This document shows, piece after piece, positions 395 to 64,000 of a stretch of 64,000 nt of DNA (within the stretch, counting starts at the first letter, position 1; each line of letters begins with the position of its first letter). The stretch comes from an uncultured Verrucomicrobiae bacterium (lineage in GTDB: Bacteria > Verrucomicrobiota > Verrucomicrobiia > Limisphaerales > UBA1096): the NCBI GenBank assembly GCA_937770485.1, contig CALJHX010000003.1, positions 60,415 to 124,414 on the forward strand. Reading direction: 5' to 3'. Under the pieces are notes generated by a model, which was not told the origin of the DNA, did no database searches, and worked only from the letters and a program-made list of their open reading frames with translations. A program made the translations under genes and the position numbers.

Positions 395-1708
395 ATGTTT
401 TTCGTGCAAACAAACAAATTGAAATCAGTACTATATGCAGCCGCGTTGATCGTCAGCGCAGTAAGCGTACAGGCAGGTGACTGGACACAATACCGAGGGC
501 CAAATTTTGACGGATCCTCCTCCGAGAAACTGGAAATACACGCTTGGCCAAGCGGTGGAATTAAGGCCGTTTGGAGAACTCCCACCCGGCTTGGATTTGC
601 CTCGTTCGCCGTAGCCAAGGGGCGAGCGTTCACGATCGTTATGGAAGAGGTTGATGGTGTTAACCGCGAAGTCTGCCTCTCGCTTGACGGCAACACCGGC
701 AAAAAACTTTGGAGCCAAGTGCTAAATATCGCCAAGTACGACGGCGGCGGAAACAGTGGCGCTAAAGACAACAAAGGTGGCGACGGACCACGCACCACGC
801 CCTCCAGCGATGGTGATCGTGTTTACATCCTCGACGGACGCCTAACGTTGCACTGTCTAGATGCCCAAAACGGCAGCAACCTCTGGACAGTCAATCTCGT
901 CAAGAAACACAAAGCCAAATCGATTCGCTGGCAGAATGCCGCAGCTCCAATCCTCGACGGTGATTTGGTTTTTGTCTGCGGCGGCGGTGAAAAACAGTCA
1001 TTGTTGGCAATTAACAAGTTATCAGGCGAGACGGTATGGAGCGGAGAAAGCGATCAAATGACTCACGCCAGCCCGATTATAGCGGACATTCACGGTGAGC
1101 GTCAGGTTGTTTTCTTCACGCAAAAAGGCTTGGTCTCCTGCAACAGCAAGAGTGGCAAGGTCCTTTGGCGCGCGGCTCATCCGTTCAAGATTTCCACTGC
1201 TGCTTCGCCAATCGTTGAAGGCGATATCGTTTACTGTTCCGCAGGTTACGGCGTGGGAGCAGCGGCTTTTCGAGTCAGTAAAAATGGTGGCGAATATTCC
1301 ACCAAGCAACTCTGGCGCAAGCCCAACAAGTTGATGAACCACTGGAGCACCCCGGTCTGCATCGAGGGTCATCTTTATGGGATGTTTCAGTTCAAGGAGT
1401 ACGGTGACGGACCCCTCAAATGCGTTGAGTTGGAAACTGGCGAAATCAAGTGGTCGAAGTCAGGTTTTGGGCCGGGGGGGGTTATCCTCGTCGATGGAAA
1501 ACTGATCAGCACCAGCGATGCGGGCGAAGTGGTTGTCTCAAAAGCGATGCCAAAAGCATACAGCGAGATAGGCCGTTTCAAAGCCATCGACGGCAAGTGC
1601 TGGACTCACGCCGCTTACAGTAATGGGCAAGTCTACGTGAGAAGCACGAAAGAAGGAGTTCGCTACGACCTCCAAGGCAGCGTGGCGGTTCGCCGACTCA
1701 ACCGTTAA
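395..1708 (+). CDS. Secreted PQQ-like (BamB-like) beta-propeller repeat protein
   Basis: 437-aa ORF with an N-terminal signal peptide (..SAVSVQAGDW). It has the GDWTQYRGPNFDG opening and repeated ..G..W motifs typical of PQQ-like propeller proteins of PVC bacteria. Confidence 0.7.
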   Translation: MFFVQTNKLKSVLYAAALIVSAVSVQAGDWTQYRGPNFDGSSSEKLEIHAWPSGGIKAVWRTPTRLGFASFAVAKGRAFTIVMEEVDGVNREVCLSLDGNTGKKLWSQVLNIAKYDGGGNSGAKDNKGGDGPRTTPSSDGDRVYILDGRLTLHCLDAQNGSNLWTVNLVKKHKAKSIRWQNAAAPILDGDLVFVCGGGEKQSLLAINKLSGETVWSGESDQMTHASPIIADIHGERQVVFFTQKGLVSCNSKSGKVLWRAAHPFKISTAASPIVEGDIVYCSAGYGVGAAAFRVSKNGGEYSTKQLWRKPNKLMNHWSTPVCIEGHLYGMFQFKEYGDGPLKCVELETGEIKWSKSGFGPGGVILVDGKLISTSDAGEVVVSKAMPKAYSEIGRFKAIDGKCWTHAAYSNGQVYVRSTKEGVRYDLQGSVAVRRLNR

Positions 1709-1860
1709 TTATCTTGTTGCCTGCGAGGCGATTTTTTTCAGAGCGGGTGATGGTCTGGAAAGAGTTCAGTTTCTCGGGTGGGGTGCCTCCCGATGTTACC
1801 TGTAAAGAGCGTGAACTATAACGGCCTGTCGAACACAAAAGTAATCGGGTTGAGGACCTG
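1655..1860 (+). repeat. Left copy of a ~200-nt duplicated segment (3' end of the PQQ-like gene plus downstream spacer)
   Basis: CCGTTAATTATC..GTTGCCTG.GAGG..TTTTTTCAGAG.GGGT.. and ..GGAACTATAACG.C.T.T..AACAC recur at 37447-37650, at about 70-85% identity by eye. A weak hairpin plus T7 follows the stop codon. Confidence 0.6.
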
Positions 1861-1920
1861 ATAGGGATCAACCGCAAGGGTGATTTGGGGGTTATAGGCT
1901 TTGTGCTGAACTACAAACAC

Positions 1921-8021: not shown

Positions 8022-10583
8022 TCATTCCCACCTAGGCTTCATCTTAAGGATGTGCTCTACAAAATAATCCATTTGTCTTCGACGACCGTAGGGGGTTCCT
8101 GCAGCGCCGTGCCCTGCACCCGGAATAAGAAGGTAGTCAAAGTCCTTATCCGCTTTAATTAAAGCATCAACGACCTGTGTCGTGCTTGCTGGATCGACAT
8201 TCCGATCAAGTTCACCCACTATCAATAATAACTTACCTTTTAGTTTGTGGGCGTGAGTGACATTGCTGTTTTGAGAGTATTCCGGGCCGACCGGCCAACC
8301 CATCCATGCCTCATTCCACCAGATTTTATCCATGCGATTGTCATGGCAGCCACAATCTGAAACACCGACCTTATAAAAGTTCCCATGATGCAGCAACCCA
8401 CTCATTGTGTTTTGACCTCCCGCTGAACCACCGTAAATACCAATATTGGACAAATCCATCTCGGGGTGTTTTTTGGCAGCAGCTTTTATCCATGGTATTC
8501 GATCCGGGAAACCGGCATCCTTAATGTTTTTCCAGCAAAAATCGTGAAATTCTTTCGAGCGCCAGTTGGTGCCCATTCCATCAATTTGGACCAGAATGAA
8601 TCCCAACTCAGCCATTCGTTGCTGACCGTAATAATCACGGAATTCTTTTGGTACATAGAAGCTATGTGGCCCAGCATAGATATTTTCTATCACTGGATAC
8701 CGCTTATCCCGGTCGAAATTAGTCGGACGCCAAATTACTCCAAAAATATCAGTTCCTCCATCTCGCCCCTTGGCCACAAAGCGTTCGGGCAACGTCCATC
8801 CGGTTTTATATAGTTTCACACAATCAGCTCGTTCCAATTCACAAATGAATTCCCCATCAGCTGAACGCAGTTCATTCACGGGAGGTTGATCCACTCGTGA
8901 CCATTTATCGATAAAGAACCGTCGGTCAGGAGACCACTGCAGTTCGTGTGTACCATTTCCCTCGGTTAAAACAGTGAAGCCTGTGCCGTCAAGATTAACA
9001 CGGCAGTGATGGATGTAATAGGGGTCCTGTTTCGGGTGAACCCCCATTCCCTGGAACCATATTTGTCGTCCGGATTCGTCAATATGTTCAACCTTTCTAA
9101 CGACCCAATTTCCATGTGTGAGAGCGTTCTTCAGTTTCTTTTTTCGCACGTCAAAAAGGTAGAGATGGTTCCATCCGTTACGTTCACTCATCCAAATCAA
9201 TTCTTCACCATCGCCAAGCCGGTATTCATAGTTTTTTTGCGAATAATCGATAAACGTGTCGCTTGTTTCTTCAACAACAGGCTTGGTTTTTCCATTTCGC
9301 GAGTTTACGGAAATTATTCTAAACACCTGATGTCCTCGCTCGTTATAATTAAAGGTAAACTCCCGTGAATCCTTTGCCCAGCGAATGCCATTGATTCGCC
9401 ACGGATTGTTAAATAATCCCTGTTCGATTTGAATTTCTTGCCTTTTGCCAACATTAAACAACTTGGGGCGTTGTTTTTCCACTCGATCACCCGGTTTCAG
9501 ATAGCTGAAGGAATGCAACTTGGGCTGCAATTGATCCTTTGGTGACGACTCAACAACATTAACAAGATGTTCCTCTTTCTTAAGCGTACGAAAAGCTGCC
9601 AACCGCTTCGAATCGGGTGACCAGTGAATGTCCCCTCTGCGATAAGAATCCTCAACAGTACCATCTTTACTGAGTTGATGATACTGACCGTTCTTGCCCT
9701 GAATCCAAAGGTTATGCTCTTTGAGCAGCACCTCCCACTTGCCATCAGGCGAACGCAAGCCTTGGGGTGGACTGTATTTCTCATGTTCAGGTCGCTTGAA
9801 GTCTTCATCTGACTCGTATGTACTCTTCTTAAATGCCGTAGTTTGGCCATCGATAATCACGGTGGGGTTTCCGGGTTTTGCCTCATAGATGCCAAGACGT
9901 TTTCCTTTTTCAGTTTCAATGAGCCAGACATGGTTTGCATATGTGTGTTGTTTGAATTCCGATTTATCGCCAATCACCTCGTAAAGATGCCGTCCGCCAT
10001 CGCCTGACACCCAAACCAAGCGAATGATCTGATCCGACACATTGCGGAATGTGACATAGGTTTCTGGCCCGCTACTGCCTGACGGACGAATGGACTCGGG
10101 GGGTTCCAGTAACAGAGGTTCATTAGAAGGTAACGTGAACTCACCCAACTCATTGTTTTTTAGGTCCAGTACCCATATATTATTTTTCCCAATCAGGTGT
10201 AGCTGATTCGGGTTATCGGTAAAAGCCAACTCATTGATTGGAAGTTTCTCAGCATCTACAGATTGGCCAAGAGTGTTAGTCAGAGTCTCAGCAACTTTGA
10301 CATGGTCGAATGCCAATTGACGTTCGCCCTTGCTGGCGTTAACCAAGACAAACTCACGTCGGTCGTTCGACAAATCGTTGCGATACCAGAAACGATCTCC
10401 GTCCGCGGACCACTTGGGATTGACATCCTTTTTGAAGACTTTATTTCGAACCTTATCTCGTAATCCCATTGCACGCTCATAATCCGCTTTGGACCCCTGC
10501 GCGAAAAGCTGTGTCATACAATTAAAGCTGACGACAAAAAGCGCGAAGCCAAGACGAATGATATTGTTTGAAAACACAGCCAA
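8022..10583 (-). CDS. S9B family dipeptidyl-peptidase IV-like serine peptidase
   Basis: 853 aa. The N-terminal part is a DPP-IV-type propeller region (repeated W.pDg.. motifs). The C-terminal part is an alpha/beta hydrolase with nucleophile box IYGGSAGGQ and downstream D and H. TTG or GTG start. Confidence 0.85.
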   Translation of the reverse strand: MAVFSNNIIRLGFALFVVSFNCMTQLFAQGSKADYERAMGLRDKVRNKVFKKDVNPKWSADGDRFWYRNDLSNDRREFVLVNASKGERQLAFDHVKVAETLTNTLGQSVDAEKLPINELAFTDNPNQLHLIGKNNIWVLDLKNNELGEFTLPSNEPLLLEPPESIRPSGSSGPETYVTFRNVSDQIIRLVWVSGDGGRHLYEVIGDKSEFKQHTYANHVWLIETEKGKRLGIYEAKPGNPTVIIDGQTTAFKKSTYESDEDFKRPEHEKYSPPQGLRSPDGKWEVLLKEHNLWIQGKNGQYHQLSKDGTVEDSYRRGDIHWSPDSKRLAAFRTLKKEEHLVNVVESSPKDQLQPKLHSFSYLKPGDRVEKQRPKLFNVGKRQEIQIEQGLFNNPWRINGIRWAKDSREFTFNYNERGHQVFRIISVNSRNGKTKPVVEETSDTFIDYSQKNYEYRLGDGEELIWMSERNGWNHLYLFDVRKKKLKNALTHGNWVVRKVEHIDESGRQIWFQGMGVHPKQDPYYIHHCRVNLDGTGFTVLTEGNGTHELQWSPDRRFFIDKWSRVDQPPVNELRSADGEFICELERADCVKLYKTGWTLPERFVAKGRDGGTDIFGVIWRPTNFDRDKRYPVIENIYAGPHSFYVPKEFRDYYGQQRMAELGFILVQIDGMGTNWRSKEFHDFCWKNIKDAGFPDRIPWIKAAAKKHPEMDLSNIGIYGGSAGGQNTMSGLLHHGNFYKVGVSDCGCHDNRMDKIWWNEAWMGWPVGPEYSQNSNVTHAHKLKGKLLLIVGELDRNVDPASTTQVVDALIKADKDFDYLLIPGAGHGAAGTPYGRRRQMDYFVEHILKMKPRWE

Positions 10584-13700: not shown

Positions 13701-14306
13701 AAAATCCACCTCCAACACAATCGACTCCGACATCGGGAGTTCGTCGACCCGAAACTTGTGCCGCAGCAAAACCAGTGTCGTTCCTACCGGGAGTTCGGTT
13801 GCGTCATCCTCGTCCCCAAATCCAAAGCCCGCTTGTCCAAGCTCAAACGTGCTATCATCGAAATCCAATCTCGTCCAATCGGTGGGCACTTCCCCTTTAT
13901 TTGCCGGGGCGAGATACTTCCACTTTGCGTTGGAAGGGATCAATGTTGATTCAAACGGAAGCGTTGCCACCGAGGTTCGCAATGCTTCAGGGGAGAGGGT
14001 TACTCGATCCAGCCCGGACATCCAGATAACGCGAAATCCGCCCGGCGCAATAGCGATATTTGGCAACTGCCACCCATCCGCTGGAGCCTCCGACTTGGCC
14101 AAGCGATACCCACCCAATCGGAGCACTTTGCTGCCGGTGTTGTGGAGTTCAACCCAATCGCTGCTGTTTCCCTCGTCATCCAACAAACCGTGTCGGTTCG
14201 AGGCCTGAAGTTCGTTGATCCGAAGCGAATCAATCGGTGTAAGTGGTTCGGCTGCGGCCCTCACCAGAAGCACAGCTGAGATTATTGAGAGTAGTAGGTA
14301 TTTCAT
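10761..14306 (-). CDS. CotH kinase-family protein with an N-terminal lamin-tail domain and C-terminal lectin-like beta-propeller repeats
   Basis: LTD: LRINELQASN..DWVELHNTG..LGGYRL. CotH: KKSYRTYF..LVLRANANDRP..IRDQLMRDLHKDMGG..YLLYVNGVNYGVYNVVERMDEEF..NWYAARRRPDGKWHFMCWDAEW. The C-terminus has repeated W/Y-rich blades. I prefer the start at MKYLLLSIISAVLL (14306), which overlaps the upstream stop as ATGA. Confidence 0.85.
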   Translation of the reverse strand: MKYLLLSIISAVLLVRAAAEPLTPIDSLRINELQASNRHGLLDDEGNSSDWVELHNTGSKVLRLGGYRLAKSEAPADGWQLPNIAIAPGGFRVIWMSGLDRVTLSPEALRTSVATLPFESTLIPSNAKWKYLAPANKGEVPTDWTRLDFDDSTFELGQAGFGFGDEDDATELPVGTTLVLLRHKFRVDELPMSESIVLEVDFDDGFVAYLNGIRVAELNAAKGEIQLDSLATNAREAGVADRFDLSAHASLLRRGDNMLAIAGLNSSRGSSDMSLKAGLGVLPTTLHASFRLLKEGGQLQLIGPEGRVMDSVLYDQQASDQSYGRAQTAEADWGYFLTPTPGAANDGPQQTGPLKSKLKFTPKPGFHDADVEVQITVNASTEVDIRYTQDGSEPVVKSTRVDGPVRLDKTGLFRAAAFIGRERLGEIESATYIVGRRPTLPVMSISMKPGDFYEVHMRSSATGRGSERASHLELFNTKGNRKVATGFGLRLHGGAGRRGDFKTKKSYRTYFRDVYGSPKVKYNIIPTADVKNFDKLVLRANANDRPPGGAYIRDQLMRDLHKDMGGLISNGTWYLLYVNGVNYGVYNVVERMDEEFMASHTGKGEFDIMKTGRTLLSGTRDGWDELEEFISSNDFSRPENYEMLKARVDIEDFTSYMIVNLWGQNYDWPHNNWYAARRRPDGKWHFMCWDAEWGIRGGPYKPDTDAYAFIDSGGAYGFALQRKMFAVLLGNRDYRKYYQSEVRRHLRGALSKENVLLRIRQQSDLIAAEVENTYQLRNYNIDNWRRKIKEVEEFASIGGAFFQKCTDEYFAYRNKPNSNLGLARFQNQAGYRHIVRRSSEGKWQELIAAPDEDKWTIRSLPVSPPPAGRPALYALSKDERRIVYRVTNGHLYEYSSDSNASLDGKWNGYNLTLGLPKAASDPSVVVANGKPHVFYVDEKGRVHELWYDGLWRHYPLPALPRAEGGAVAALNGSTLHVIYRSMYGVSYEQSLDLRAATKDRRQWITKRGVHRLPAAGQPFGLTVNGRRNAVFLAASDWPRRAPFVFDWNERKRVPGYRTYQGKRNTLVYAMDIGQRFKDLLSIEGTTDQVAGTFHLLSGSSNAKHYLAFRDMQGTIREYVLRGETWEMTKPTELANAPNAIGDPTGWIDGKVGTRHYIYQGEGTSVHQLTFDGNWTHRNLSM

Positions 14307-15250: not shown

Positions 15251-15397
15251 GATGGGGGCTGGCCCGGGCAGTGATTGAGTACTGGTCGATATCCTCGCCG
15301 AGGGAGTGACCGTGGTTGTTGAACATCCCAAGATTAAAGATGGCTCAGGCGGCCCAAATCGTGTCATGGCCATAGTTTAGCACTTGGCCAAACGGGG

Positions 15398-18515: not shown

Positions 18516-20801
18516 TTGAAATTTTTAATTGAAACACTTGCTGTATGCTGTGTTATTTGTGTGGATTTGGTTTATGCAGATTCTCAGCACTTTGAGTTTT
18601 TTGAAAACAAAGTGCGACCTGTTTTGGCGGATAATTGCTATGAATGCCACAGCGGACTGAATGAGAGACATAGGAGCGGACTCCGTTTGGACAGCCGGGA
18701 CGCAATTTTGAAAGGGGGCGAACACGGGCCAGCCATCATTCTTGGAAACCCGGACGATAGTCGAATGATTCGTTACGTCCGGCACCAGGGCAAGAAGATG
18801 CCGGCAATGGGTAAACCTAAGTTGAGCGACCCGGAGATTGCGGCTTTGGCGAAGTGGGTTGAGTTGGGGGCTCCTTGGCCCAGGGCAACGGTCGTGCCAA
18901 CGACGGATAATTACGATTGGCCAAAGGCTCGCGAACATTGGGCATGGCGACCGGTGAAAAAAGTGATCCCTCCGAATGTGCCGGGTGCGCGGGTACGGAA
19001 TCCAATCGACCAATTCGTTGCTGAAGGTTTACGCGAAGCCGGCTTCATGCAGCCGCCGGAAGCCAAGGCGTCTATATTCGTTCGCCGCGTATTTTTGGAT
19101 TTAATGGGACTGCCGCCCACGCCTGATGAGTTGCGCTACTGGACTCAGCGGTTGGGGGGCGACTCCGAGGATGAGCTAAACGATCAGGCTGTGTCTGTAT
19201 TGGTGGATTCGCTGCTCAACCGTCCCCAGTACGGCGAACGCTGGGGGCGTCATTGGCTGGACGTGGCGCGGTATAGTGATGCGGGGGGCTGGACGCAGGA
19301 TAATCGGTCGCATCCCAAGGCGTGGCAGTATCGCGACTGGGTGGTTCGCGCGTTCAATGCAGATCTACCGTTCGACGAGTTCGTTCGAAGCCAGATCATA
19401 GGCGACAAGATGGGGCGCGAGGCAGCGGCCGGTACCGGTTTTTTTGCGCTGGGCCCCACATATTCTTCGGACGGCGGCGACCCGGAGAGCATCGCGCAGG
19501 CAAAGAGTGAAACACTCGACGATCGCGTGGACACTTTTTCGCGTGCGTTTCTCGGGCTGACAGTGGCGTGTGCTCGCTGCCACGATCACAAGTTTGATCC
19601 GATCCCGACTGAGGATTACTACTCGATTGCCGGCGTATTCAAAAATACGCGCGAAGGCGAAACACCGTTGGCTAAGGAGAAGGTTATCAACGCCTACCAC
19701 AACGCCCGAAAACCCATCGATGCCCTGCACGATAAAATCGGAAAATCCAAGAAGCAGCCCCAGTCGGACGAGATCAAGAAACAGATCGCCAACTGGCAAA
19801 TTGAGCTCAAGGAGCTGGAGGCAAAGGCACCGCTGAAATTTGAGTTTGCCCATACACTGCGGGACGCTGGCAGCGAGGATATGAAAGTGGCGCTACGCGG
19901 CAATTCGATGAAGCCGGGCAAGGTGGCGCCGCGCCGGTTTTTGCGCATTGTCGCCGGCAAAGACCGCAAGCATTTTAATCAGGGCAGCGGGCGTGAACAA
20001 TTGGCTAAGGCAGTGGTCGATCCGACCAATCCGCTGACGGCACGAGTTTTTGTGAACCGTGTGTGGCAGCATCACCTTGGTGAAGGGTTGGTGCGTTCGC
20101 CGGATAATTTCGGCGTACTTGGTCAAGAGCCAACACACCCTGAATTGCTCGATTGGCTGTCTGCGACCTTCGTCGAAAGCGGCTGGTCGACTAAGGCGTT
20201 GCATCGACTGATTCTTACCTCCGCGACCTATCGTGGCAGCAGCGCATTTGACGAAACATCCTTTGCGAGCGACGGGGATAACCGCTCGCTCTGGCGCATG
20301 ACACCACGCCGGATGGACGCGGAAACGTGGCGGGATTCTCTGCTCGCAGTCACTGGCGAACTCGACCTTCAGATAGGTGGCGGGCCGGTGCAGGATATCG
20401 TCGCCAGCAACCGCCGCACACTTTACGCAAAGGTCAGCCGTAACGCGCCCTTGGCCTCGGATAAATTTCTTCGCCTGTTCGATTTTCCAATCCCGCGGGC
20501 CAGCGCAGCCAAGCGCACGGCTAACGTCATTCCTCAACAGTTTTTGTTCATGATGAACAGCCGGTTTATGCTCGACCGTGCCAGTGCATTGTCCAAGCGT
20601 TTGGAGAGAGAGTCCGACGATATGGCAACCCGCATTGCACGTGCCTACTCTCTGCTCTATGGTCGGGCCCCTACCGACCGCGAACAGCGCCTAGCCAAAG
20701 GATTCTTGAAGGGTTCGCAGCCGGTCGCCAGCGGACTGACCCGCTGGCAGCAGTATTGTCAGGCCTTGCTCAGCGCAAACGAGTTCATGTATATTCGATA
20801 A
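18516..20801 (+). CDS. PSCyt1/PSCyt2 (DUF1549)/PSD1 (DUF1553) domain protein
   Basis: 761 aa, TTG start, signal peptide. The N-terminal box is CYECHS. Architecture is DUF1549/DUF1553-type. It is followed, as is typical, by a DUF1501 gene. Confidence 0.8.
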   Translation: MKFLIETLAVCCVICVDLVYADSQHFEFFENKVRPVLADNCYECHSGLNERHRSGLRLDSRDAILKGGEHGPAIILGNPDDSRMIRYVRHQGKKMPAMGKPKLSDPEIAALAKWVELGAPWPRATVVPTTDNYDWPKAREHWAWRPVKKVIPPNVPGARVRNPIDQFVAEGLREAGFMQPPEAKASIFVRRVFLDLMGLPPTPDELRYWTQRLGGDSEDELNDQAVSVLVDSLLNRPQYGERWGRHWLDVARYSDAGGWTQDNRSHPKAWQYRDWVVRAFNADLPFDEFVRSQIIGDKMGREAAAGTGFFALGPTYSSDGGDPESIAQAKSETLDDRVDTFSRAFLGLTVACARCHDHKFDPIPTEDYYSIAGVFKNTREGETPLAKEKVINAYHNARKPIDALHDKIGKSKKQPQSDEIKKQIANWQIELKELEAKAPLKFEFAHTLRDAGSEDMKVALRGNSMKPGKVAPRRFLRIVAGKDRKHFNQGSGREQLAKAVVDPTNPLTARVFVNRVWQHHLGEGLVRSPDNFGVLGQEPTHPELLDWLSATFVESGWSTKALHRLILTSATYRGSSAFDETSFASDGDNRSLWRMTPRRMDAETWRDSLLAVTGELDLQIGGGPVQDIVASNRRTLYAKVSRNAPLASDKFLRLFDFPIPRASAAKRTANVIPQQFLFMMNSRFMLDRASALSKRLERESDDMATRIARAYSLLYGRAPTDREQRLAKGFLKGSQPVASGLTRWQQYCQALLSANEFMYIR

Positions 20802-22369: not shown

Positions 22370-23710
22370 TCAAACCATCTCCTTGACGGAATAAGGGTTC
22401 ATGTTCTGGCGCTTGGCCAAGCGGTTTGCTGGGTCGCTGTCGATGAACCGCTCCGATCTGGCGTCGTAACGCAGCTTTTGGTTGCCGACCCGGTGCGCGA
22501 TATTACCCATATGCATCACAGAAGTTGTCACCTGCGCGAGCCCAACGTCCGCGTTGGGCAACTCGCGCGAGCGGATACAGTCGACAAAATTCTGCTGATG
22601 CTCCGGGTCCGGATGTCGGCCATACTGCTGCCCCGCTACCCTGCCGTTTGAGGCGAACACCTGCCAACCGCCGCCGTGTCGCCCGAGCATCATCATGTCC
22701 TTAGTGCCGTAAAACTCGATGCGAGTTGCGCACTGTGGCCAGTGCGGAAACTTGTCACTCGAACGGATGCTGCCGTTAATCTTGCTCATTGCACCGGCGA
22801 AATGCGAATGCTCTAAGGTCATAACAAAACCGGGATAGTCATACTGCAGAATCTCCACATCCGGCACCTCGGCGTCGTCACCCCGGTGCTGGATACGACC
22901 GCCCGAGGCGGACACCGCAGCCGGTGCGGCGGGATCGCCCATCACCATCAGCGCAAGGTCGAGTTGGTGAATGCCGCAGTCAGCCAAATCACCTCCGGAG
23001 TAGTCCCAGAAATAATGCCAACCAGCGTGAAAGATGCGGCTGTGATAAGGCCGCGCCTTTGCCGGTCCCAGCCAGGTTTTCCAGGAAAAGCCTTTCGGTG
23101 GACTACCGCTTGCCCCGAGATGAAACGGCCCGCCGCCCTTGAGATTGAATACCTTGACCAGGCGCACATCGCCGAGTCTGCCGGATCGGATGTACTCCCG
23201 TGCCGCTTGGTTGTATGGGGCACTGCGATTCTGTGTGCCAACCTGCACGATGCGCTTGTACTTCCGCGCCGCCTCCACGAGCTTGCGACCCTCCCAAATG
23301 TTGTGGCTGAATGGTTTCTCGACGTAGACATCCTTTCCCGCCTGACAGGCGAGGATGGCAGCCGGCGTATGCCAATGATCCGGCGTAGCCAACACCACGG
23401 CATCGACGTCTTTATTGGCAAAAACCTCCTCCATTCGCCGGGCCAGCAATGGCTTCCGGCCGCTCTGCTGTTCCGCCATGTGGTCGGCAATCCGGACTAG
23501 GCGCTCCTCGTGGATGTCGCACACCTGCGAGCACTCGACATCACTACGCCGGGCCATGCTCGCGGTGACCTGCGTGCCCCGGCCGCCGCATCCAATCAGT
23601 GCCACCTGTACTCTTTCGTTGGCCCCCCGCACTTGGCCAAGCGCCGGGAAACCCAACGCGGAGGCGGCCAATCCACTTTTCAAGAACGTTCTGCGTTTGA
23701 TGGGGTTCAT
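22370..23710 (-). CDS. Gfo/Idh/MocA family oxidoreductase with a Tat signal
   Basis: 446 aa. MNPIKRRTFLKSGLAASALG; Rossmann motif VALIGCGGRG. Confidence 0.85.
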   Translation of the reverse strand: MNPIKRRTFLKSGLAASALGFPALGQVRGANERVQVALIGCGGRGTQVTASMARRSDVECSQVCDIHEERLVRIADHMAEQQSGRKPLLARRMEEVFANKDVDAVVLATPDHWHTPAAILACQAGKDVYVEKPFSHNIWEGRKLVEAARKYKRIVQVGTQNRSAPYNQAAREYIRSGRLGDVRLVKVFNLKGGGPFHLGASGSPPKGFSWKTWLGPAKARPYHSRIFHAGWHYFWDYSGGDLADCGIHQLDLALMVMGDPAAPAAVSASGGRIQHRGDDAEVPDVEILQYDYPGFVMTLEHSHFAGAMSKINGSIRSSDKFPHWPQCATRIEFYGTKDMMMLGRHGGGWQVFASNGRVAGQQYGRHPDPEHQQNFVDCIRSRELPNADVGLAQVTTSVMHMGNIAHRVGNQKLRYDARSERFIDSDPANRLAKRQNMNPYSVKEMV

Positions 23711-23928
23711 ATGAACGGAAGTTTAGCAAGCCAGTCTTTGAACCACACGACTTTATTGATTGCCCATCTTGGCCAAGTGAGGTGAAGCTTCGCTCACGTG
23801 GTGTTCGGATTTCCGGCAACCGTCGGAAGGCAAAGATTCCCAAAGGTTTGTTTTCTTCAACATGGATGGAGATCCTCAGATAGTATTCACCCATCTGTCT
23901 TAAACTCACTGTTGAAGATCAGCTAGAG

Positions 23929-40324: not shown

Positions 40325-41884
40325 TTATCGACCGAGTGAGGGGAAGGCAGCAAGCAACTTTTGGCTGAAAGTATTGGGGTGGCCTTCGTTGGATTGAATT
40401 GGGCCGGGGGTAGTGCGACCGTTTTTGATCGCTCTAGCCAAGGTGGCAACGAGATCTTGCACCAGTTTGGGGTGCTTGGCCTGTAGGTTGTTTTGCTCGG
40501 TTGGATCCGCGGCGAGGTCGTACAACTGCACAGGTGGCAGTGACTTGTTTTTCTTGGCGGTAGTTGGCTTGGGGTCGCTCCATCCGCCGGAACCGGGGCA
40601 GAGGGCGAGTTTCCATTTGCCGCGGCGGATGGCGAACGAGCCGTTGATTGAGTGGTGGATGGTGAACGGGCGCCGCTTGGCCTGCGCTTGGCCAAGCAGG
40701 CCAGGGAGGAATGAAAATGAATCCTCGGCGGCGTTGGCCGGGATGGTTTCACTCTTGCCGAGTATATCGGCGACCGTGGCGAAGAGATCCGCCGTGCATA
40801 TGGTTTGGCCAGATGTGGAACTGACTGCAACCTTGCCTGGCCATCGGACGAGAAACGGTACGCGGTGGCCGCCTTCGAAAATGTCGGCTTTGTGCCCGCG
40901 CCAGTCGGCGTTGGGCTTGTGGCTCTTGGCCACGAGCGCCGGGATTTTTGCCGCTGGTGAGCAGCCGTTGTCTGTCGCGAAAATGACGATGGTGTCTTTG
41001 GCCAGGCGATGGCGGTCGAGCGCTTGCAGCACTTGGCCAACGACCCAGTCGGTTTCCATCAGGAAATCGCCGTACTTGCCGATGTCGGATTTGCCCTGCC
41101 ACGGTTTCGACGGAACGATCGGCGTGTGAGGGCTACTCAGCGGCAGGTAGAGGAAAAACGGCTTGTCCCGCTCCTTGGCCCGGGCGTCGATGAACGTGCC
41201 GGCCTCGCGGGCAAAGTCGCGCAGACAATTTATCGCCTCGAAATCCTCCGCGCACGGGCCGGGCCGGTGGAACGCCTTGGTCACCGTTGCCCAGGCGGTC
41301 GGCTTGTCGTTCTGCAAGTAAACATATGGAAACATGTCGAGCGACGCGGGGATGATGAACGATTCGTCAAAGCCGATGGCCAACGGGCCGCCGTTGACTT
41401 TTTTGCCGTAGTCAATTTGCCAGCCGTCGCCCTTGGTCGGGCCGCTCTTGGCTTGGCGTTTTTCGCCGTTGGGCAGCATCTGCCAGCCAAGACCGAGGTG
41501 CCACTTGCCAACGACGCCGGTGTGATAGCCGTTCTCTTGCAGAAACTTTGGCGTGGTGAGTCGATCGGTGGCGACGAGCGGCTCAGACAACCCCCAAAGG
41601 ACGCCTTTCTTCAACGTGCTCCGCCAATTGTAGCGGCCTGTGATGATGCCGTAGCGGGTTGGCGTGCAGACCGACGACGTCGTGTGTGCGTCGGTGAAGC
41701 GCATTCCTTCGTGTGCCAAGCGGTCACAGTGCGGCGTCCGCGCCTTCCCTCCAGCGTGAGAGAGATCGCCATAACCAAGATCGTCGGCAAGAATGAAAAT
41801 AACATTCGGCTTGTCGGCTGCATGTGCCAAGGAAAGAAAAAACAGCGAGAAAACAGTGAGAAACAACAATTTAATGGAAAGCAT
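40325..41884 (-). CDS. Arylsulfatase (formylglycine-dependent sulfatase family)
   Basis: PNVIFILADDLGYGDL, SVCTPTRYGIITGRY (C-x-P-x-R), GKWHLG, ..LYDLAADPTEQNNL. Confidence 0.9.
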   Translation of the reverse strand: MLSIKLLFLTVFSLFFLSLAHAADKPNVIFILADDLGYGDLSHAGGKARTPHCDRLAHEGMRFTDAHTTSSVCTPTRYGIITGRYNWRSTLKKGVLWGLSEPLVATDRLTTPKFLQENGYHTGVVGKWHLGLGWQMLPNGEKRQAKSGPTKGDGWQIDYGKKVNGGPLAIGFDESFIIPASLDMFPYVYLQNDKPTAWATVTKAFHRPGPCAEDFEAINCLRDFAREAGTFIDARAKERDKPFFLYLPLSSPHTPIVPSKPWQGKSDIGKYGDFLMETDWVVGQVLQALDRHRLAKDTIVIFATDNGCSPAAKIPALVAKSHKPNADWRGHKADIFEGGHRVPFLVRWPGKVAVSSTSGQTICTADLFATVADILGKSETIPANAAEDSFSFLPGLLGQAQAKRRPFTIHHSINGSFAIRRGKWKLALCPGSGGWSDPKPTTAKKNKSLPPVQLYDLAADPTEQNNLQAKHPKLVQDLVATLARAIKNGRTTPGPIQSNEGHPNTFSQKLLAAFPSLGR

Positions 41885-58053: not shown

Positions 58054-59700
58054 TTAGTCCGTGATGAGTCGGGCTTTTTCTTGTATCAGGCTGTCCATTT
58101 GTTGCAATTGCGGAACAATGGACTGCACCTCCTCAGGGAACCAGCGGTGGGCGGAGTCGTTGTGGTCGCGGCTGCTGGGCTGAGTCTGGCGGTTGCCGTA
58201 GAGGAATGCCCAGTTTGTTGGTAGCCAGAATTGTCGCCACAACATGTTTTTTTGCAGAATGGTTTGTCGCAATTCTTCGGCGGGAATAGGAATCAATTCG
58301 CCGGTCAGAGAGGCGCGGATAGCAGACGTGGGGTCGGTCAGGCTAAGTTGTGTGGAGATGGTGCGAGCGACGAGCCATTGACCTTTGCGCGATAGCGTGG
58401 CGCCGTCGCGGGTAATCGCTTGGCCAAGCAGGGAGTAAGTCAGATCAACAACTGGCAGTTTTCGCGCCTGGCCAAGGCGGAGAATGGCCGAGGTGTAATG
58501 TTTGAGATTAGCGTTTCGTTTTTTGATATCTAGGCCAAGGCCAAGAGGATCCTCGAACGGCACTGGTGTGATCAAAACCAATCGGCTAGTACGAGAGGAA
58601 AGTTGCTCGAGGATTTGTTCGTAACACTTAGTGAAGTCATCCAACTTTGCAAAGCCCTCGAGTGACTCCGCTTGGCCTAGCCACACAAATACCATGTTTG
58701 CGGCGAGTGGCTTGCGGCGATCTGCCTCTCCGTAGCTTGGCTTGGTAGTGCCAAAAAAATTGCGAGGCCGCTGCTGTTGGTAGACGGTGTCCGCAGGCCA
58801 GGCCATGTTGCGAATGCTCAATCTCTGTTTTGGATGTGCAGCAGTCATCAGCGTCTCGAGATAACCGTGCCCCTGGCTCTCGGCGGCGTTGGTAGAGCCG
58901 ACGATCACAATGTTGGTGTCGCCGGTGATTTGGAATCCGTTACGGAATCCCGGAGACGCCTTGGCCGCCTTGGCCAAGGGCCGTGTCAATACAGGGATTG
59001 AAGGTGTGACCGCCACTGCTTTTTTCGGCAATTCAGCGAGCAGTTGTTTTTCAGTGAAGTCGTCCAGCGCGAGCTTGGGATTGTGGATAAGCTTAACGGG
59101 GCGATAGAGTACCGTCTGCGCCGGGCCGGCATGGAGTTGAAAAGCGATGTCACCGGCCAGCTCGCCTTTGGGATCGTCGATGGCCACGCAGAGTGTGCCG
59201 TTGATGGCGCTCCAAATACGGTGGCCGACGGCGAGGATTTCGTAGCGGTTCCATTCACCTCGCTTCACGGCCTTGTCGGCGCGATTGTTCCAGTCAAGTT
59301 TACCGCGGCCGTGTTCGTGGTAGAGTTTACCCCATACGCCCGCGCCCACATCAGCCTGATAACCAAGCGCTTGCCCGGCGGCATTGGTTTTCTTTGAGCG
59401 AAATTGTATCCCCGCGTTACGGTTGTCCGGTGTGAGCTTCACGTCCACCGATAAATAAAAATCCTTCACCGTCACGTCCGACCAAAGGAATTCATTCTTC
59501 GGCACTTTTTCTGTCGAGTGCCCGACAATCGTTCCGCCCTTCACCGACCAATATTTGGGCTGTGAAGTCGACCAAGCATCTAGGTCATTGCCGGTGAAAA
59601 ATGTGTCATCTACACGCGGCGTTGTGGATTGTCCCGTGGAGGTGGTTGCGAGGGCAAATAGGCAGAGGGTGAGGGTGAATCGTTTTTTCATTTTTGCCAT
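58054..59700 (-). CDS. DUF1080 (ConA-like) domain plus SGNH-like hydrolase-fold protein
   Basis: I prefer the start MAKMKKRFTLTLCLFALA, downstream of the sulfatase stop. ..WSVKGGTIVGHS..EFLWSDV.VKDFYLSVDVKL....NAGIQFRS..GYQADV..WNRYEILAVGHRIW is DUF1080-like. The C-terminal half has a flavodoxin-like SGNH-type pattern. Confidence 0.65.
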   Translation of the reverse strand: MAKMKKRFTLTLCLFALATTSTGQSTTPRVDDTFFTGNDLDAWSTSQPKYWSVKGGTIVGHSTEKVPKNEFLWSDVTVKDFYLSVDVKLTPDNRNAGIQFRSKKTNAAGQALGYQADVGAGVWGKLYHEHGRGKLDWNNRADKAVKRGEWNRYEILAVGHRIWSAINGTLCVAIDDPKGELAGDIAFQLHAGPAQTVLYRPVKLIHNPKLALDDFTEKQLLAELPKKAVAVTPSIPVLTRPLAKAAKASPGFRNGFQITGDTNIVIVGSTNAAESQGHGYLETLMTAAHPKQRLSIRNMAWPADTVYQQQRPRNFFGTTKPSYGEADRRKPLAANMVFVWLGQAESLEGFAKLDDFTKCYEQILEQLSSRTSRLVLITPVPFEDPLGLGLDIKKRNANLKHYTSAILRLGQARKLPVVDLTYSLLGQAITRDGATLSRKGQWLVARTISTQLSLTDPTSAIRASLTGELIPIPAEELRQTILQKNMLWRQFWLPTNWAFLYGNRQTQPSSRDHNDSAHRWFPEEVQSIVPQLQQMDSLIQEKARLITD

Positions 59701-59722: not shown

Positions 59723-61273
59723 TTATCGTTTCGGAGCGCTGCGACCGTTTTTTTTGAACTCATTCAGCTTCTCTTTTAGTTCCCCAACAATCTCGGGATA
59801 CTTGAAGTAAAGATTGTTGGTTTCGCCCGGATCATTTGCCAGATCATACAATTGGCCGGGGGCATTCGGAGATTTCTCGGGTAATGCGTACTGTTTCATG
59901 CCCCATCTGCCTTCGCGGCCATAGTTGTTGCCGCCGGAGCCTTTGTGATCAAGGTACTTCCATTGGCCGCGCCTGATGGCCATGGCGAGGCTGATAGTTT
60001 GGTGCAAGGTATAGTTACGAATGGGTTTGGTGTCTTTGCCAAGAAGCGCAGATAAAATATTGTAGCTGTCTTCGGCGGCATTATTGGGAATTTTCGCGCC
60101 GGTGATTGCGGCGGCTGTGGCCATGATGTCCGTGAGGCAAATAGTCTGGTCAGATGTGCTGTCGGGTTTGATCTTGCCGGGCCAACGGGCGATAAAAGGA
60201 ACGCGGTGACCGCCTTCCCACTGATCGCGCTTTACGCCACGCCATGGGTGGGCACCGTTGTGGTTGTGATCATGCCGCATGGAAATGGAGGTGGGCACTT
60301 CAGGGCCGTTATCACTCGTGAAGATGACCAGTGTGTTGTCTGCCATACCATGGTTATTAAGCTTCTTCATTAGTTCACCCACTACAAAGTCCATTTCGAA
60401 AATAAAATCACCGTGTGGTCCGGCCTTGGTTTTGCCTTTGAAGGCATCGCCGGGGAATGAGGGCAGATGCACAGCCTGCATGGAGTGAAAGAGGAAGAAC
60501 GGTTTCTTGGGCGATTGCTTGGCGTGGTTATCCAGAAACTTCAGGCTCCGCTCCAGGAAAACCATGTCCACTTCCTCCAGATCAAAGCCCGGCGCAATCA
60601 TGCCCGGGCGATTGTCGTTTGAGTAAGGATGCTTCGGGAGTGGCGTGCGATCGACAATGTGAGTGGGAGGTACAGGTATACGATCTCCATCAACAAAGGC
60701 GTAGAGCCAGTCGGTGGTGGGACAGCACACGGTCCCGAAGAAATAATCGAAGCCTCGGTGGATTGGTGCATCGGGAATGGCCCGGCTGTAATCGATCCGT
60801 TTCACTGCGGGCAGGCCGTTTTGGTTGATGGGTTTGCCCGCCTTGTCAAAGAAGGTCATGCCCACATGCCATTTACCGAACATCGCCGTCGCGTAACCTT
60901 TGCTGCGCAACAAGGAGGGCAGCGTCAGGCGCGTTTTTTCAATCATGCATGGGCCGCCCGCACCGGTGAAAACACCGCGCATCCCCGTACGAAACGCCAT
61001 CCGGCCGGTAAGCAGGCTGTAACGCGTGGGCGTGCAAACCGTCGACGGACTGTGCGCGTCGGTGAACCTCATTCCCTGCTTGGCCAAGAGATCCAAATTC
61101 GGTGTGGGCACTTTGGATTCCGGGTTGTAGCAACCGACGTCGCCGTAACCCAAATCATCGGCCAGAATCACGATGATGTTCGGAGTGCCAGTTCCTTCTC
61201 CTGCGAACGCGAGACTGGCCGTGAAGAGCATCGAGATACTGACGGCCCATGTGGTTAATAGTTTCCTAAACAT
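59723..61273 (-). CDS. Arylsulfatase (formylglycine-dependent)
   Basis: PNIIVILADDLGYGDVGCY, STVCTPTRYSLLTGR, GKWHVG, LYDLANDPGETNNL. Confidence 0.9.
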   Translation of the reverse strand: MFRKLLTTWAVSISMLFTASLAFAGEGTGTPNIIVILADDLGYGDVGCYNPESKVPTPNLDLLAKQGMRFTDAHSPSTVCTPTRYSLLTGRMAFRTGMRGVFTGAGGPCMIEKTRLTLPSLLRSKGYATAMFGKWHVGMTFFDKAGKPINQNGLPAVKRIDYSRAIPDAPIHRGFDYFFGTVCCPTTDWLYAFVDGDRIPVPPTHIVDRTPLPKHPYSNDNRPGMIAPGFDLEEVDMVFLERSLKFLDNHAKQSPKKPFFLFHSMQAVHLPSFPGDAFKGKTKAGPHGDFIFEMDFVVGELMKKLNNHGMADNTLVIFTSDNGPEVPTSISMRHDHNHNGAHPWRGVKRDQWEGGHRVPFIARWPGKIKPDSTSDQTICLTDIMATAAAITGAKIPNNAAEDSYNILSALLGKDTKPIRNYTLHQTISLAMAIRRGQWKYLDHKGSGGNNYGREGRWGMKQYALPEKSPNAPGQLYDLANDPGETNNLYFKYPEIVGELKEKLNEFKKNGRSAPKR

Positions 61274-61274
61274 T

Positions 61275-62462: not shown

Positions 62463-62495
62463 TTCTTTTTTATTAGCAAAGTTTTCAGTCAGGCG

Positions 62496-64000
62496 TCACT
62501 TCAGCTCGCCGGTGGTTTTCAGGGTGGACAAATATTTAATGAGGTCGCGCAGTTCAGCGCGTGTGAGGCTGGCGGTAAGGCCCGGCGGCATCACGGTGCC
62601 GTTGCGGGTGCGTTGCTTGATGTTGGCGGTTTGGACGGGGGCGATTTTGCCGGTGGCCAGGTCGCGAACGCGCAGCACGGTTTTGTCTTCGCTGTGGGCG
62701 AAGCCGCTCAGCACGCGGCCGTCTTTCGTGATCACCGTGGTGGCGGCGTAACCTTCCTTGATTTGCCGTGCGGGCCACAGCACGCTTTCCACCAAAAGAT
62801 CCATCGGCAACCCCGCCGCCACTGCCGAGAGGTTCGGGCCTTTCACCGAAGTCACCGCGCCGCGCACGCCGTCCACCGCGTGGCACGCCGTGCAACTGGC
62901 CAGCGGCAGTTGGAAAACCTTTTTGCCATTCACCGCATCACCCTTCGCCAGTGCTTCCTTGGCCAACGCGCCCACAAAGTCCGCACTGTAAACCGGCGCG
63001 ACCGATTGCACGCCGATGAGTTTATTTAAAACTAAGTTTAATTTTTGCTCCACCCGCCCCGCCGCGTTGAGCCAGCGCAGTATCAACTTGGCGGTATCCG
63101 CCGAAACCTCCGCTTGGCCAAGCGCGCCAGCCATCGCATCCGCGCCGGCGTTGCGTTGCAACAACGCGGCCAAGACCGGCCCCAATTCATCCGGCTTCAC
63201 TTGGCCTGACAGCCGCGCCGTCAATTGCGCCGCGCGAGCCACGTCGTGCTTGGCCAAGCTGCCCAAGGCCGCCACGCGCAAATCCGCTGCGCCATTCACC
63301 GTCACCAACGACGCCAGCGTTTCCACCGCCTGCGGGATGTTCAACTGCCCCAACGCCACCGCAGCGGCCACCCGCACGGCGCGCGGTTCCGTTTGGCCGG
63401 TGGCCAAGGCGCGGATGGTCTCCGCATGCGCGTTAAGTTTCCACGCGCCAATTAATTGGACCGCTCCGGCGCGCGTCGCGGTGGTCTTCAATGGCACGTT
63501 GAGTAATTCCGCCGCATTGGCGGGTGCTTGCAAATTGCGTTCGCGGGCGGCGTTCACCAACGCGTGCAGGATGGTTGGATGGATTGAAGCCAACTCCAGC
63601 GCCAGCGCGGCATCGGCGCTGTTGCCGATCTGGGCGAGCAATTCCGCGAGAACAAGTTTGCGCGCGGTGGACAGCGCGGGGTCGGCCAGTTTTTGGCGCA
63701 CCACGCTGGCGACTTCGTTGCCGCCGCCTTCGCGCACGACGCTTAACAGATGCGCCGGTTTGGCAAAATCCAGTTTGCCCGCCAATAACGCGGGCTTCCA
63801 TTCGCTGGCGAGGGCGTGGACGGCGTTTTTGAAGGCGAAGGTGATAAAGCGATCCGCCGAGCCATCGGCGGCTTGCGCGGCGATGGCGATGGATTCCGCC
63901 TCGCGCACATCGCTCGCGGCCACGATGGCTTCCAGCCGCACGCGCGAATGTTCATCGGTCGCGCTGCGGCGCAAAAGTGCAAGCGGGTTTTTCAAACGGT
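62496..64000 (-). CDS. HEAT-repeat / PVC-type heme-binding (CxxCH) domain protein, with the N-terminus outside the window
   Basis: The frame is open to the window edge. Ala/Leu-rich HEAT-like repeats are followed by SCTACHAVDG..GPNLS..LLVESVLWP..TKDGRVLSG..GTVMPPGL...LTRAELRDLIKYL. Confidence 0.8.
   Translation of the reverse strand, partial: RLKNPLALLRRSATDEHSRVRLEAIVAASDVREAESIAIAAQAADGSADRFITFAFKNAVHALASEWKPALLAGKLDFAKPAHLLSVVREGGGNEVASVVRQKLADPALSTARKLVLAELLAQIGNSADAALALELASIHPTILHALVNAARERNLQAPANAAELLNVPLKTTATRAGAVQLIGAWKLNAHAETIRALATGQTEPRAVRVAAAVALGQLNIPQAVETLASLVTVNGAADLRVAALGSLAKHDVARAAQLTARLSGQVKPDELGPVLAALLQRNAGADAMAGALGQAEVSADTAKLILRWLNAAGRVEQKLNLVLNKLIGVQSVAPVYSADFVGALAKEALAKGDAVNGKKVFQLPLASCTACHAVDGVRGAVTSVKGPNLSAVAAGLPMDLLVESVLWPARQIKEGYAATTVITKDGRVLSGFAHSEDKTVLRVRDLATGKIAPVQTANIKQRTRNGTVMPPGLTASLTRAELRDLIKYLSTLKTTGELK

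Follow-up and report, generated by a model that had tools for sequence, protein, structure and literature searches.

Uptake sequences, such as the uptake signal sequences (USS) of Pasteurellaceae and the DNA uptake sequences (DUS) of Neisseriaceae, are thought to accumulate by substitution and biased fixation, and Chi words are asymmetric words of 5-8 nt that are co-oriented with replication and few-fold enriched. The closest described system to the one reported here is the highly iterated palindrome HIP1 (GCGATCGC) of cyanobacteria, together with the alternative highly iterated palindromes (HIPs) of that phylum, whose properties are described in PMC5861425 and PMC4390886. HIP1 occurs at 300-2700 sites per Mb (PMC4390886), shows a chromosomal periodicity of 10-90 kb (Xu 2018), and is itself not abundant outside cyanobacteria (PMC5861425). 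It has been reported to raise natural transformation in a way that depends on methylation and has been proposed to be an uptake or Chi-like signal (bioRxiv 10.1101/2024.09.10.611283; 10.64898/2026.06.24.733823). HIP1 has remained unexplained for thirty years, partly because it has been a single case in one phylum. Here, we analyzed a stretch of 64,000 nucleotides from an uncultured Verrucomicrobiae bacterium (GenBank assembly GCA_937770485.1, contig CALJHX010000003.1, positions 60,415 to 124,414 of the forward strand), hereafter the window, in which an initial annotation made from the letters alone had noticed many copies of the palindrome TTGGCCAA. There is hardly any room for doubt that a marine Verrucomicrobiota lineage harbors a genuine highly iterated palindrome, with the 16-mer consensus GCGCTTGGCCAAGCGC, which arises by in-place substitution and occasional 12-bp duplication and whose sites are retained above comparable octamers.

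The window contains 21 copies of the octamer TTGGCCAA, 14 of the 10-mer CTTGGCCAAG and seven of the 12-mer GCTTGGCCAAGC (exact counts). On recount, all of these sites matched the positions given in the initial annotation exactly; the reading frames it had assigned (A-W-P-S at 544, L-G-Q at 38422, and L-A-K at 22413 and 38993) were correct, and the one-off variants it had quoted were present. Dinucleotide shuffling led to expectations of 1.9, 0.11, and 0.01 copies for the 8-, 10-, and 12-mer, respectively, corresponding to observed/expected ratios of 11, 127, and 700, and none of 100 shuffles attained the observed counts. Under an order-3 Markov model, which had been proposed as a check, the ratios were also far from 1 at the scale of the window (5.6, 64, and approximately 500), and CTTGGCCAAG was the top-enriched 10-mer. 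A maximal-order Markov model predicted the 8-mer count from its 7-mers; this is to be expected if the true unit exceeds 8 bp, and it is therefore no argument against the finding. The embedded hexamer TGGCCA, a site of the MscI/BalI type, was approximately 1.9-fold over-represented. A second palindrome, GGATGCATCC, was rejected as an iterated element, along with the over-represented words ACCCTTCT, GCAGTGGC, GCTCAGAC, and AGGACATG, since their surplus copies came from one tandem repeat of six 657-bp copies; among the words checked, TTGGCCAA is therefore the sole dispersed over-represented word. Comparison of the flanks revealed that all sites differ beyond the graded 16-bp consensus, and the unrelated flanks rule out a longer repeat or a miniature inverted-repeat transposable element (MITE). 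No Rfam match was obtained anywhere in the window, no transposase was present in it, and DNA-metabolism genes were absent from the window and its 15 kb of flanks.

Eighteen of the 21 sites (86%) lie within genes, where they encode L-A-K (eight), L-G-Q (eight), or W-P (two), with the frames used 8, 8, and 2 times; the remaining three are intergenic. We permuted synonymous codons within each of 36 open reading frames (ORFs), so that the proteins and the per-gene codon usage were kept. The observed counts in coding DNA (18, 13, and 7 for the 8-, 10-, and 12-mer) exceeded the expected counts (3.3, 0.9, and 0.29) 5.5-, 14-, and 24-fold, and were attained in none of 500 shuffles. The codons of the motif spelled 8 of the 17 L-A-K and 7 of the 12 L-G-Q tripeptides, for which codon usage predicts approximately 1.4 and 0.3, respectively (hand calculation). 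The codon shuffle, the spread over frames, and orthologues with the same peptide but other codons all indicate enrichment at the level of DNA with no peptide or codon effect, as had been argued from the frames of the first sites.

The genes of the window are typical of the Planctomycetes-Verrucomicrobia-Chlamydiae (PVC) superphylum (PSCyt1/PSCyt2/PSD1, DUF1501, sulfatases, CotH, and FG-GAP). Proteins identical to those of the window were found in many marine metagenomes, including Tara, and the named cluster members or close homologues were Verrucomicrobiota metagenome-assembled genomes (MAGs). Gene content and homologue labels thus supported the PVC host that had been presumed, namely a bacterium of the marine Verrucomicrobiota. 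The density of sites was maintained outside the window in the same genome, with five sites in 9.6 kb upstream and four in 5.7 kb downstream; it amounted to 3.3-3.8 per 10 kb in this genome and to 8-11 per 10 kb in GC-rich relatives. Across 80 DUF1501-homologue loci from GTDB species representatives, TTGGCCAA was the top palindromic octamer and strongly enriched in just three Verrucomicrobiota MAGs, L008 (seven sites in 12.6 kb, GC 0.60), L032 (15 sites in 21.4 kb, GC 0.58), and L051 (21 sites, 19 of them the 10-mer, in 18 kb, GC 0.62). The 21 octamers of L051 compare with 1.23 expected under a locus-fitted order-3 null. The other approximately 70 PVC loci were near background, with 0-2 sites each. 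No further palindromic octamer stood out in any of the 80 loci under this null with Bonferroni correction, and CGAATTCG, GCGATCGC, and GCCGCGGC were rejected as iterated palindromes of other PVC lineages because none passed it. The HIP1 word GCGATCGC was seen 4-6 times in the 13-21 kb loci of L013, L053, and L086 (Planctomycetaceae, Rhodopirellula MAGs), and CGAATTCG six times in 13 kb of L016 (Pirellulales), each below the Bonferroni threshold of the order-3 test.

Orthologues of the acyltransferase of the window led to further relatives. L327 and L328 (86% protein identity each) carry 11 core sites in 18 kb at GC 0.57 and five in 16.7 kb at GC 0.53, respectively. L329 (GCA_902590685.1) and L330 (ERZ23491778), with 65% identity and GC 0.45, carry three core sites each in 19.6-21.4 kb and hardly any 10-mers; in this low-GC sister lineage, the motif is either decaying with falling GC or was never expanded. 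We also scanned metagenome contigs with the 20-mer TTGGCCAAGCGCTTGGCCAA, a doublet of the motif described below. At least 120 contigs (841 kb) matched, compared with a chance expectation of approximately one or fewer (rough estimate). Among the matches listed, to which all values for this 841-kb sample refer, the names that indicate a source were marine, and 905 core sites were present (10.8 per 10 kb); with the probe doublet excluded, the median was 8.2 per 10 kb at GC 0.48-0.65. The same word dominates several lineages with GC of 0.51-0.62. The searchable literature, including that on uptake sequences in Verrucomicrobia, contained no earlier description of the palindrome, in agreement with the earlier impression that the element is new to the PVC literature.

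The anatomy of the element was examined in a pool of 981 sites from 992 kb, in which the core TTGGCCAA is fixed by the search. The consensus was the two-fold-symmetric 16-mer GCGCTTGGCCAAGCGC, with symmetric flanks that fade outward from C (86%) through G (67%) and C (65%) to G or C. There were 415 perfect 12-mers, and the one-off variants at the five inner positions of the half-site numbered 33, 50, 11, 14, and 10, the central TGGCCA being the tightest-constrained part of the core. Deamination-type one-offs showed neither surplus nor deficit, and central-G changes were rare and evenly spread. In the 841-kb sample, 48% of all CGCTTGG half-sites ran on as CCAAG and half-sites were not independently enriched, which rules out the half-site as the true unit; the full palindrome is the unit. 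The sites of this sample occupied the three frames 390, 304, and 82 times, and 129 sites were located outside ORFs, where 14% of the sites fell in at most 7% of the DNA, an approximately 2-fold higher density.

A secondary form of the element is the 12-bp tandem doublet TTGGCCAAGCGCTTGGCCAA, itself a 20-bp perfect palindrome, which is present in L051 at 6511-6530 and 12383-12402 and in the contigs L207-L326. Doublets were found in at least 122 distinct contexts and in all frames (LAKRLAKR, LGQALGQA, and WPSAWPS), and they are estimated to make up approximately 1-3% of sites when those selected by the probe are left out. Among the matches listed, 21% of doublets were intergenic, with a weak tendency toward 3' ends, and no triplet occurred among 127 doublets; a few intergenic doublets were seen to adjoin T-runs just past stop codons. 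As DNA, the doublet folds into a hairpin of 8-9 bp with a GCGC loop (-7.7 to -9.7 kcal/mol, z -3 to -3.9). A hairpin role for single sites was rejected because they fold no better than shuffles (z -0.1) and only doublets fold well.

The sites of the window illustrate this range of forms. The 14-bp perfect palindrome CGCTTGGCCAAGCG at 541..554 encodes A-W-P-S in the PQQ_2 gene at 395-1708 (+). It is followed by a core-only TTGGCCAA at 10263..10270 (L-G-Q) in the DPP-IV-type peptidase gene at 8022-10583 (-), by CTTGGCCAAG at 14094..14103 (L-A-K) in the CotH gene at 10761-14333 (-), and by an intergenic core (CTTGGCCAAA) at 15384..15391, 7 bp past the stop codon of the gene at 15398-18124 (-). 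A core at 18917..18924 encodes W-P in the PSCyt/PSD1 gene at 18516-20801 (+). The Gfo/Idh/MocA gene at 22370-23710 (-) carries CGCTTGGCCAAGCG at 22410..22423 (L-A-K) and CTTGGCCAAG at 23632..23641 (L-G-Q), both with 15 of the 16 consensus positions, and an intergenic CTTGGCCAAG at 23768..23777 lies approximately 59 bp upstream of its start. Further downstream are a core (GCGCTTGGCCAAAC) at 26519..26526 (L-A-K) in the gene at 26285-28222 (+), an intergenic core (CTTGGCCAAA) at 37821..37828 between the convergent ORFs at 36929-37402 (+) and 38188-38643 (-), and GCTTGGCCAAGC at 38420..38431 (L-G-Q) in the latter ORF. Two CTTGGCCAAG sites, at 38992..39001 (L-A-K) and 39506..39515 (L-G-Q), fall in the acyltransferase gene at 38648-40039 (+); the orthologous site of the former is kept in L327 and L328, and that of the latter in L327, with L-G-R in L328. 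The sulfatase gene at 40325-41884 (-) contains GCTTGGCCAAGC at 40686..40697 (L-G-Q), kept in L327, and a core at 41033..41040 that is confined to the window lineage, where it encodes V-G-Q. All four relatives have V-G-E at this place, and the site therefore entails an amino-acid change.

Toward the end of the window, the gene at 58054-59763 (-) carries GCTTGGCCAAGC at 58418..58429 (L-G-Q) and CCTTGGCCAAGG, a 12-bp palindrome with variant flanks, at 58968..58979 (L-A-K). Another sulfatase gene at 59723-61273 (-) carries CTTGGCCAAG at 61079..61088 (L-A-K). In the HEAT/cytochrome c gene at 62496-64000+ (-), whose start is beyond the window end, are a core at 62959..62966 (L-A-K), CGCTTGGCCAAGCG at 63111..63124 (L-G-Q, 15 of 16 consensus positions), and GCTTGGCCAAGC at 63248..63259 (L-A-K). 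Near-sites with one mismatch to the 10-mer are CTTGTCCAAG (13832..13841), CTTGGCCCAG (18874..18883), CTTGGTCAAG (20118..20127), the intergenic CTTCGCCAAG (38149..38158), CATGGCCAAG (38851..38860), CTTGGCCACG (40925..40934), CTAGGCCAAG (58530..58539), CTTGGCCTAG (58671..58680), and CTTTGCCAAG (60034..60043); the near-site CCTGGCCAAG (58467..58476) represents the most frequent one-off type in the large sample.

Orthologous DNA revealed how sites are gained and lost. In a 12.4-kb alignment of L032 and L051 (90.6% identity), 10 of 11 L032 sites were kept in L051, compared with 52% of background octamers. Five of the six extra sites of L051 faced near-motifs in L032 that were 1-3 substitutions apart, and the sixth was a precise duplication of the motif unit, the sole 12-bp indel of the alignment. 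In the DUF1501 gene, for instance, TTG-GCC-AAG in L051 corresponded to CTA-GCC-AAG in L032 with the peptide unchanged, and other lineages had L-A-Q, L-A-N, or L-A-R at the same position. The window sites at 38993, 39507, and 40688 were common to L327 at approximately 80% nucleotide identity. Sites specific to one lineage were due to synonymous change (CTG-GCC-AAA vs TTG-GCC-AAG) and to replacement (LEQ/LGQ, VGE/VGQ, LAE/LAK, and LGK/LGQ). Origin by synonymous change, which had been proposed as a check, was thus confirmed in orthologues, together with substitutions that alter the protein. After masking the probe doublets, we further compared 80 kb from 20 non-redundant orthologous pairs at 75-95% identity; the strain copies L001-L006 were too close for this purpose (99-99.97% identity). 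Core sites were conserved at 66.7% across these independent pairs, compared with 41.9% of octamers overall, 42.1% of the other palindromic ones, and 39.8% of those matched for GC (P = 8e-9 counted two-way; approximately 1e-4 estimated one-way per pair). In these pairs, an unshared site was most commonly partnered by CTGGCCAA or TTGGCCAG, that is, a TTG/CTG leucine switch. Individual copies originate in place through point substitutions, and occasionally through 12-bp tandem duplication; the element is not a mobile repeat.

The density of sites followed base composition. In 4-kb bins of the window, 19 sites were found in the 32 kb with GC >0.51 and two in the 32 kb with GC <0.50 (binomial P of approximately 1e-4, hand calculation). 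At the codon level, the observed/expected ratio was approximately 5 in both GC classes (16 vs 2.94 and 2 vs 0.43), and the difference therefore lies in the frequency of compatible peptides, which the motif itself can create through replacements such as LEQ to LGQ. Density rose with GC among the genes of the window (Spearman 0.56, P = 4e-4) and among 73 metagenome loci (Spearman 0.48, P = 1e-5, among the matches listed), and over 79 kb of contiguous DNA it tracked gene GC and evolutionary rate rather than position. Gene GC ranged from 0.39 to 0.635 within the 64 kb, an unusually mosaic composition, the low-GC genes being mostly those of ankyrin-repeat, secreted, and surface proteins. Site-free FG-GAP and DUF1573 genes were syntenic in relatives and fast-diverging (62-77% nucleotide identity), with no sites in all three genomes. 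The reading of low-GC-gene depletion as a sign of foreign origin was softened in view of this synteny and of the equal ratios in both classes. Among the site-free genes, the only clear insertion is the ORF at 42096-46289 (1397 aa, six CBM9 domains), which holds no palindrome site. It contains the tandem repeat mentioned above, six head-to-tail copies of 657 bp that are 98% identical (42187-46128) and were overlooked by Tandem Repeats Finder because the period exceeds 500. This ORF is absent between the sulfatase and DUF1573 genes of L327 and L328, and we therefore regard it as an insertion in the window lineage. With regard to spacing, 41 loci gave a mean z of +0.44 against random placement, indicating slight clustering. 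Single intergenic sites showed no bias among convergent, tandem, and divergent regions, and terminator-like placement was rejected for lack of an orientation preference.

The palindrome was also enriched in one bona fide phage contig. The contig L155 (IMGVR_UViG_3300032087_002358; 13.7 kb, 1-13670), which encodes a large terminase, a DnaB helicase, a DnaD-like loader, an exonuclease, and RusA, contains eight core sites compared with 0.28 expected, several of which bear the full extended consensus. Among its relatives, those whose terminases are 89% identical carry 1-2 sites at a GC of 0.44-0.46, and those with terminases of 59-61% identity carry none. The phages thus mirror the range seen in hosts, and in both composition and motif density they appear to track their putative hosts. 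When the viral collection was scanned with the 14-mer, nearly all matches were single chance copies, and the 20-mer doublet was absent from it.

Comparison with described systems supported the parallel with HIP1 drawn in the initial annotation. In the terms used for HIPs by Robinson 1995, Elhai 2015, and Xu 2018, the palindrome is over-represented, has unique flanks, occurs in every frame as well as in non-coding DNA, spreads by substitution, and is preferentially conserved. Like HIP1 and the alternative HIPs, it is a short, dispersed palindrome that ranks as the top over-represented word, is lineage-restricted and conserved above control octamers, and extends symmetrically beyond 8 bp. Its density of 330 per Mb in the window and approximately 800-1100 per Mb in relatives compares with the 300-2700 per Mb of HIP1. 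It is not HIP1 itself, because the word is TTGGCCAA rather than GCGATCGC and the host belongs to Verrucomicrobiota rather than cyanobacteria. Unlike HIP1, it is graded to 16 bp, frequently forms 12-bp doublets, and follows GC in its density, and no counterpart of the orphan methyltransferases (GATC and CGATCG) that are the defining companions of HIP1 was found in approximately 1 Mb of genome fragments.

The element also resembles USS and DUS, whose properties are taken here from the general literature on uptake sequences. Both reach approximately one site per kb in the richest lineages, combine a conserved core with flanks that are graded, lie mostly in genes and in all frames, leave a peptide imprint, are in excess in intergenic DNA, have paired copies that can form hairpins, and are fewer in fast-evolving or accessory genes. 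In contrast to the asymmetric USS and DUS, which have one orientation, the present element is a perfect palindrome; its spacing is not more even than random, and no competence evidence or receptor is tied to this lineage. As in Campylobacter jejuni, where the methylated RAATTY shows that a short palindromic self-DNA mark can serve transformation (PMC10046745), the word is short and palindromic, but RAATTY, a degenerate 6-mer, is frequent as a result of base composition, is not known to be hyper-enriched, and needs a known methyltransferase. A Chi-like role has been suggested for HIP1 (bioRxiv 10.1101/2024.09.10.611283), and the present element shares with Chi that it is an over-represented short word inside genes that would also benefit phages facing host exonucleases; unlike Chi, it is a palindrome of 10-16 bp that is 60- to 500-fold enriched. 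Repetitive extragenic palindromes (REP), bacterial interspersed mosaic elements (BIME), and MITEs are likewise palindromic and highly repeated, but they are longer, imperfect, extragenic, and transposase-mobilised and have shared flanks, whereas the present sites are mostly genic, have unique flanks, and are born by substitution. Two further assignments were rejected. An active Type II restriction-modification target does not agree with the lack of avoidance of TGGCCA and with the enrichment of the extended word in the phage contig, and a copy number of the Noc, SlmA, MatP, or ParB type (tens per genome) does not agree with 3-11 sites per 10 kb, which implies thousands per genome.

Sites of 16 bp with dyad symmetry and graded constraint are what dimeric DNA-binding proteins recognise, and TGGCCA and GGCC are classical methyltransferase targets. 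We tentatively propose that a symmetric, homodimer-type host protein recognises the word and acts in DNA exchange (uptake or recombination), and that the word has been spread by biased fixation. A sequence-specific homodimeric host protein would read the two-fold-symmetric site of approximately 16 bp, possibly together with a methyltransferase modifying the embedded TGGCCA or GGCC. This reader would act during exchange, either in the uptake of relatives' DNA or in its recombination, so that DNA bearing the word would be preferentially taken up or recombined. Fixation would then favor alleles gaining the word over those losing it, a form of molecular drive, and over time the word would enter every position tolerated by codons or amino-acid changes. 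Its density would be expected to peak in intergenic DNA and in core genes that evolve slowly and are richer in GC, and the word would also turn up in phages of these hosts. We favor an exchange tag because the density, the core with graded flanks, the peptide imprint, the intergenic excess, and the paucity in fast-evolving genes match uptake sequences, and because a palindromic methyl-tag exists in Campylobacter, which takes up only DNA methylated at RAATTY (PMC10046745), and HIP1 has been linked to methylation-dependent transformation.

Several points weigh against an exchange tag. In the DNA sampled, no cognate protein, methyltransferase, or competence gene was tied to the motif. A search of 6634 stop-to-stop ORF fragments (>=70 aa) from approximately 1 Mb of motif-rich DNA, using phmmer seeded with M.HhaI, M.HaeIII, Dam, CcrM, and Vsr and a regular expression for the m5C motif, detected no methyltransferase or Vsr; the sample consists of fragments of many genomes, and this absence therefore means little. 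Classical uptake sequences are not palindromic, and we know of no report of natural transformation in Verrucomicrobiota. The sites are slightly clustered, not evenly spaced. The enrichment in phage is not obviously predicted by a pure uptake drive, a strong repair bias would also yield preferential conservation, and the rise of density with GC is without direct explanation under an exchange tag. A more specific version of the proposal would have marine Verrucomicrobiota use the palindrome for self-recognition in natural transformation or recombination, with a dimeric receptor reading it, possibly only when TGGCCA is methylated; this version is correspondingly more doubtful. A symmetric staggered cut at the site, followed by fill-in, could have produced the 12-bp doublets, in which case the recognising protein would also be a nuclease.

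The main rival to an exchange tag would have the word be a functionless by-product of biased repair, in which an orphan cytosine methyltransferase acts on TGGCCA or GGCC and mismatch repair resembling very short patch (VSP) repair converts near-motifs on any DNA that replicates in the cell. TGGCCA and GGCC in the core are targets that such an enzyme could use, single substitutions do turn near-motifs into motifs, and the host-like density and GC of the L155 phage and its relatives fit a process acting on all cell-resident DNA. Cyanobacterial HIPs, moreover, co-vary with methyltransferases (PMC4390886). We nevertheless consider this explanation unlikely, given that the commonest gain or loss is a T<->C change at the outer core position and not at a cytosine inside GGCC, and that the one-off variants carry no deamination skew, with the rare central-G changes spread evenly. 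A graded specificity over 10-16 bp exceeds the 4-8 bp typical of Type II methyltransferases and Vsr, and known effects of VSP repair on word frequency are modest, compared with the 60- to 500-fold enrichment here. The failure to detect a methyltransferase or Vsr in the approximately 1 Mb sampled points the same way, weakly, as these are genome fragments. It is less probable still that the word binds an abundant protein that is nucleoid-associated or organises the chromosome, as the palindromes of Noc, SlmA, MatP, or ParB do, at far higher copy number and kept by selection on chromosome structure. A dyad-symmetric site of 14-16 bp and conservation above controls would suit such a protein, and a role in nucleoid structure has been argued for HIP1 (Xu et al., PMC5861425), but the phage contig is equally site-rich, regular spacing is lacking, and density follows gene GC and evolutionary rate and not position in the 79 kb. 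Known systems of this kind are also 10 to 100 times sparser than the up to one site per kb seen here.

The duplication that forms the only 12-bp indel between L032 and L051, and the doublets in at least 122 independent contexts but never as triplets (among the matches listed), would suit a word at which a site-specific nuclease or mobile element acts or has left a scar, through a symmetric cut with repair or through insertion and later excision, with the doublets as fill-in or target-site duplications. This is very improbable as an account of the element as a whole, because single sites arise by substitution without indels, flanks are unique, no associated transposase or nuclease gene was seen in the DNA examined, and doublets constitute such a small share of sites. 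Finally, the possibility held out by the initial annotation as the refuting case, namely that the word is a side effect of L-A-K, L-G-Q, or W-P motifs and codon usage, can be regarded as refuted. These three peptides are common ones, and low-GC genes without them are also without sites, but the excess persisted in the codon shuffle with the proteins fixed, three frames converge on one DNA word, sites are denser outside ORFs, and orthologues with the same peptide and other codons lack the site. The peptides are in themselves over-represented, approximately 2.3- to 2.5-fold by hand calculation, and arise through replacements such as LEQ to LGQ.

The element resembles HIP1 in kind, but its word and phylum are new, and no comparable palindrome from another phylum was found in the literature searched. 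It provides an independent second case for HIP1, with an unrelated sequence and in an unrelated, ecologically abundant marine lineage. Since motif-rich and motif-poor sister clades lie close together, gene families that track density (methyltransferases, pilus and competence genes, and recombination nucleases) can be compared across both phyla, and the comparison with HIP1 could also show whether methylation at the word is shared. In practice, the word, and especially its 20-bp doublet, provides a specific marker by which contigs of these Verrucomicrobiota can be binned; it may help to assign phages to hosts, although the doublet is absent from the viral collection. If the transformation results for HIP1 carry over, including the word in constructs could help the genetic tractability of uncultured-type bacteria. 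If the word does serve self-recognition, it would rank as the first uptake-type sequence outside cyanobacteria that is palindromic and bears a strong signature of drive, and it would give the PVC superphylum its first evidence of sequence-biased gene exchange; HIP1 and this element would then be convergent solutions to one problem.

Strain-level variation was also seen within the window. The strain copy L005, which is 99% identical elsewhere, carries two extra prepilin-like N_methyl genes (L005 18045-19641) near window position 28.9 kb, and this strain-variable insertion spot lies within a site-free stretch. The 5' ends of N_methyl/DUF1559-type genes share 70-85 nt that are 80-85% identical between otherwise unalignable loci (window 28889-28973 and 51972-52043; L008 12530-12614), and these shared stretches are a conserved prepilin-type signal region.

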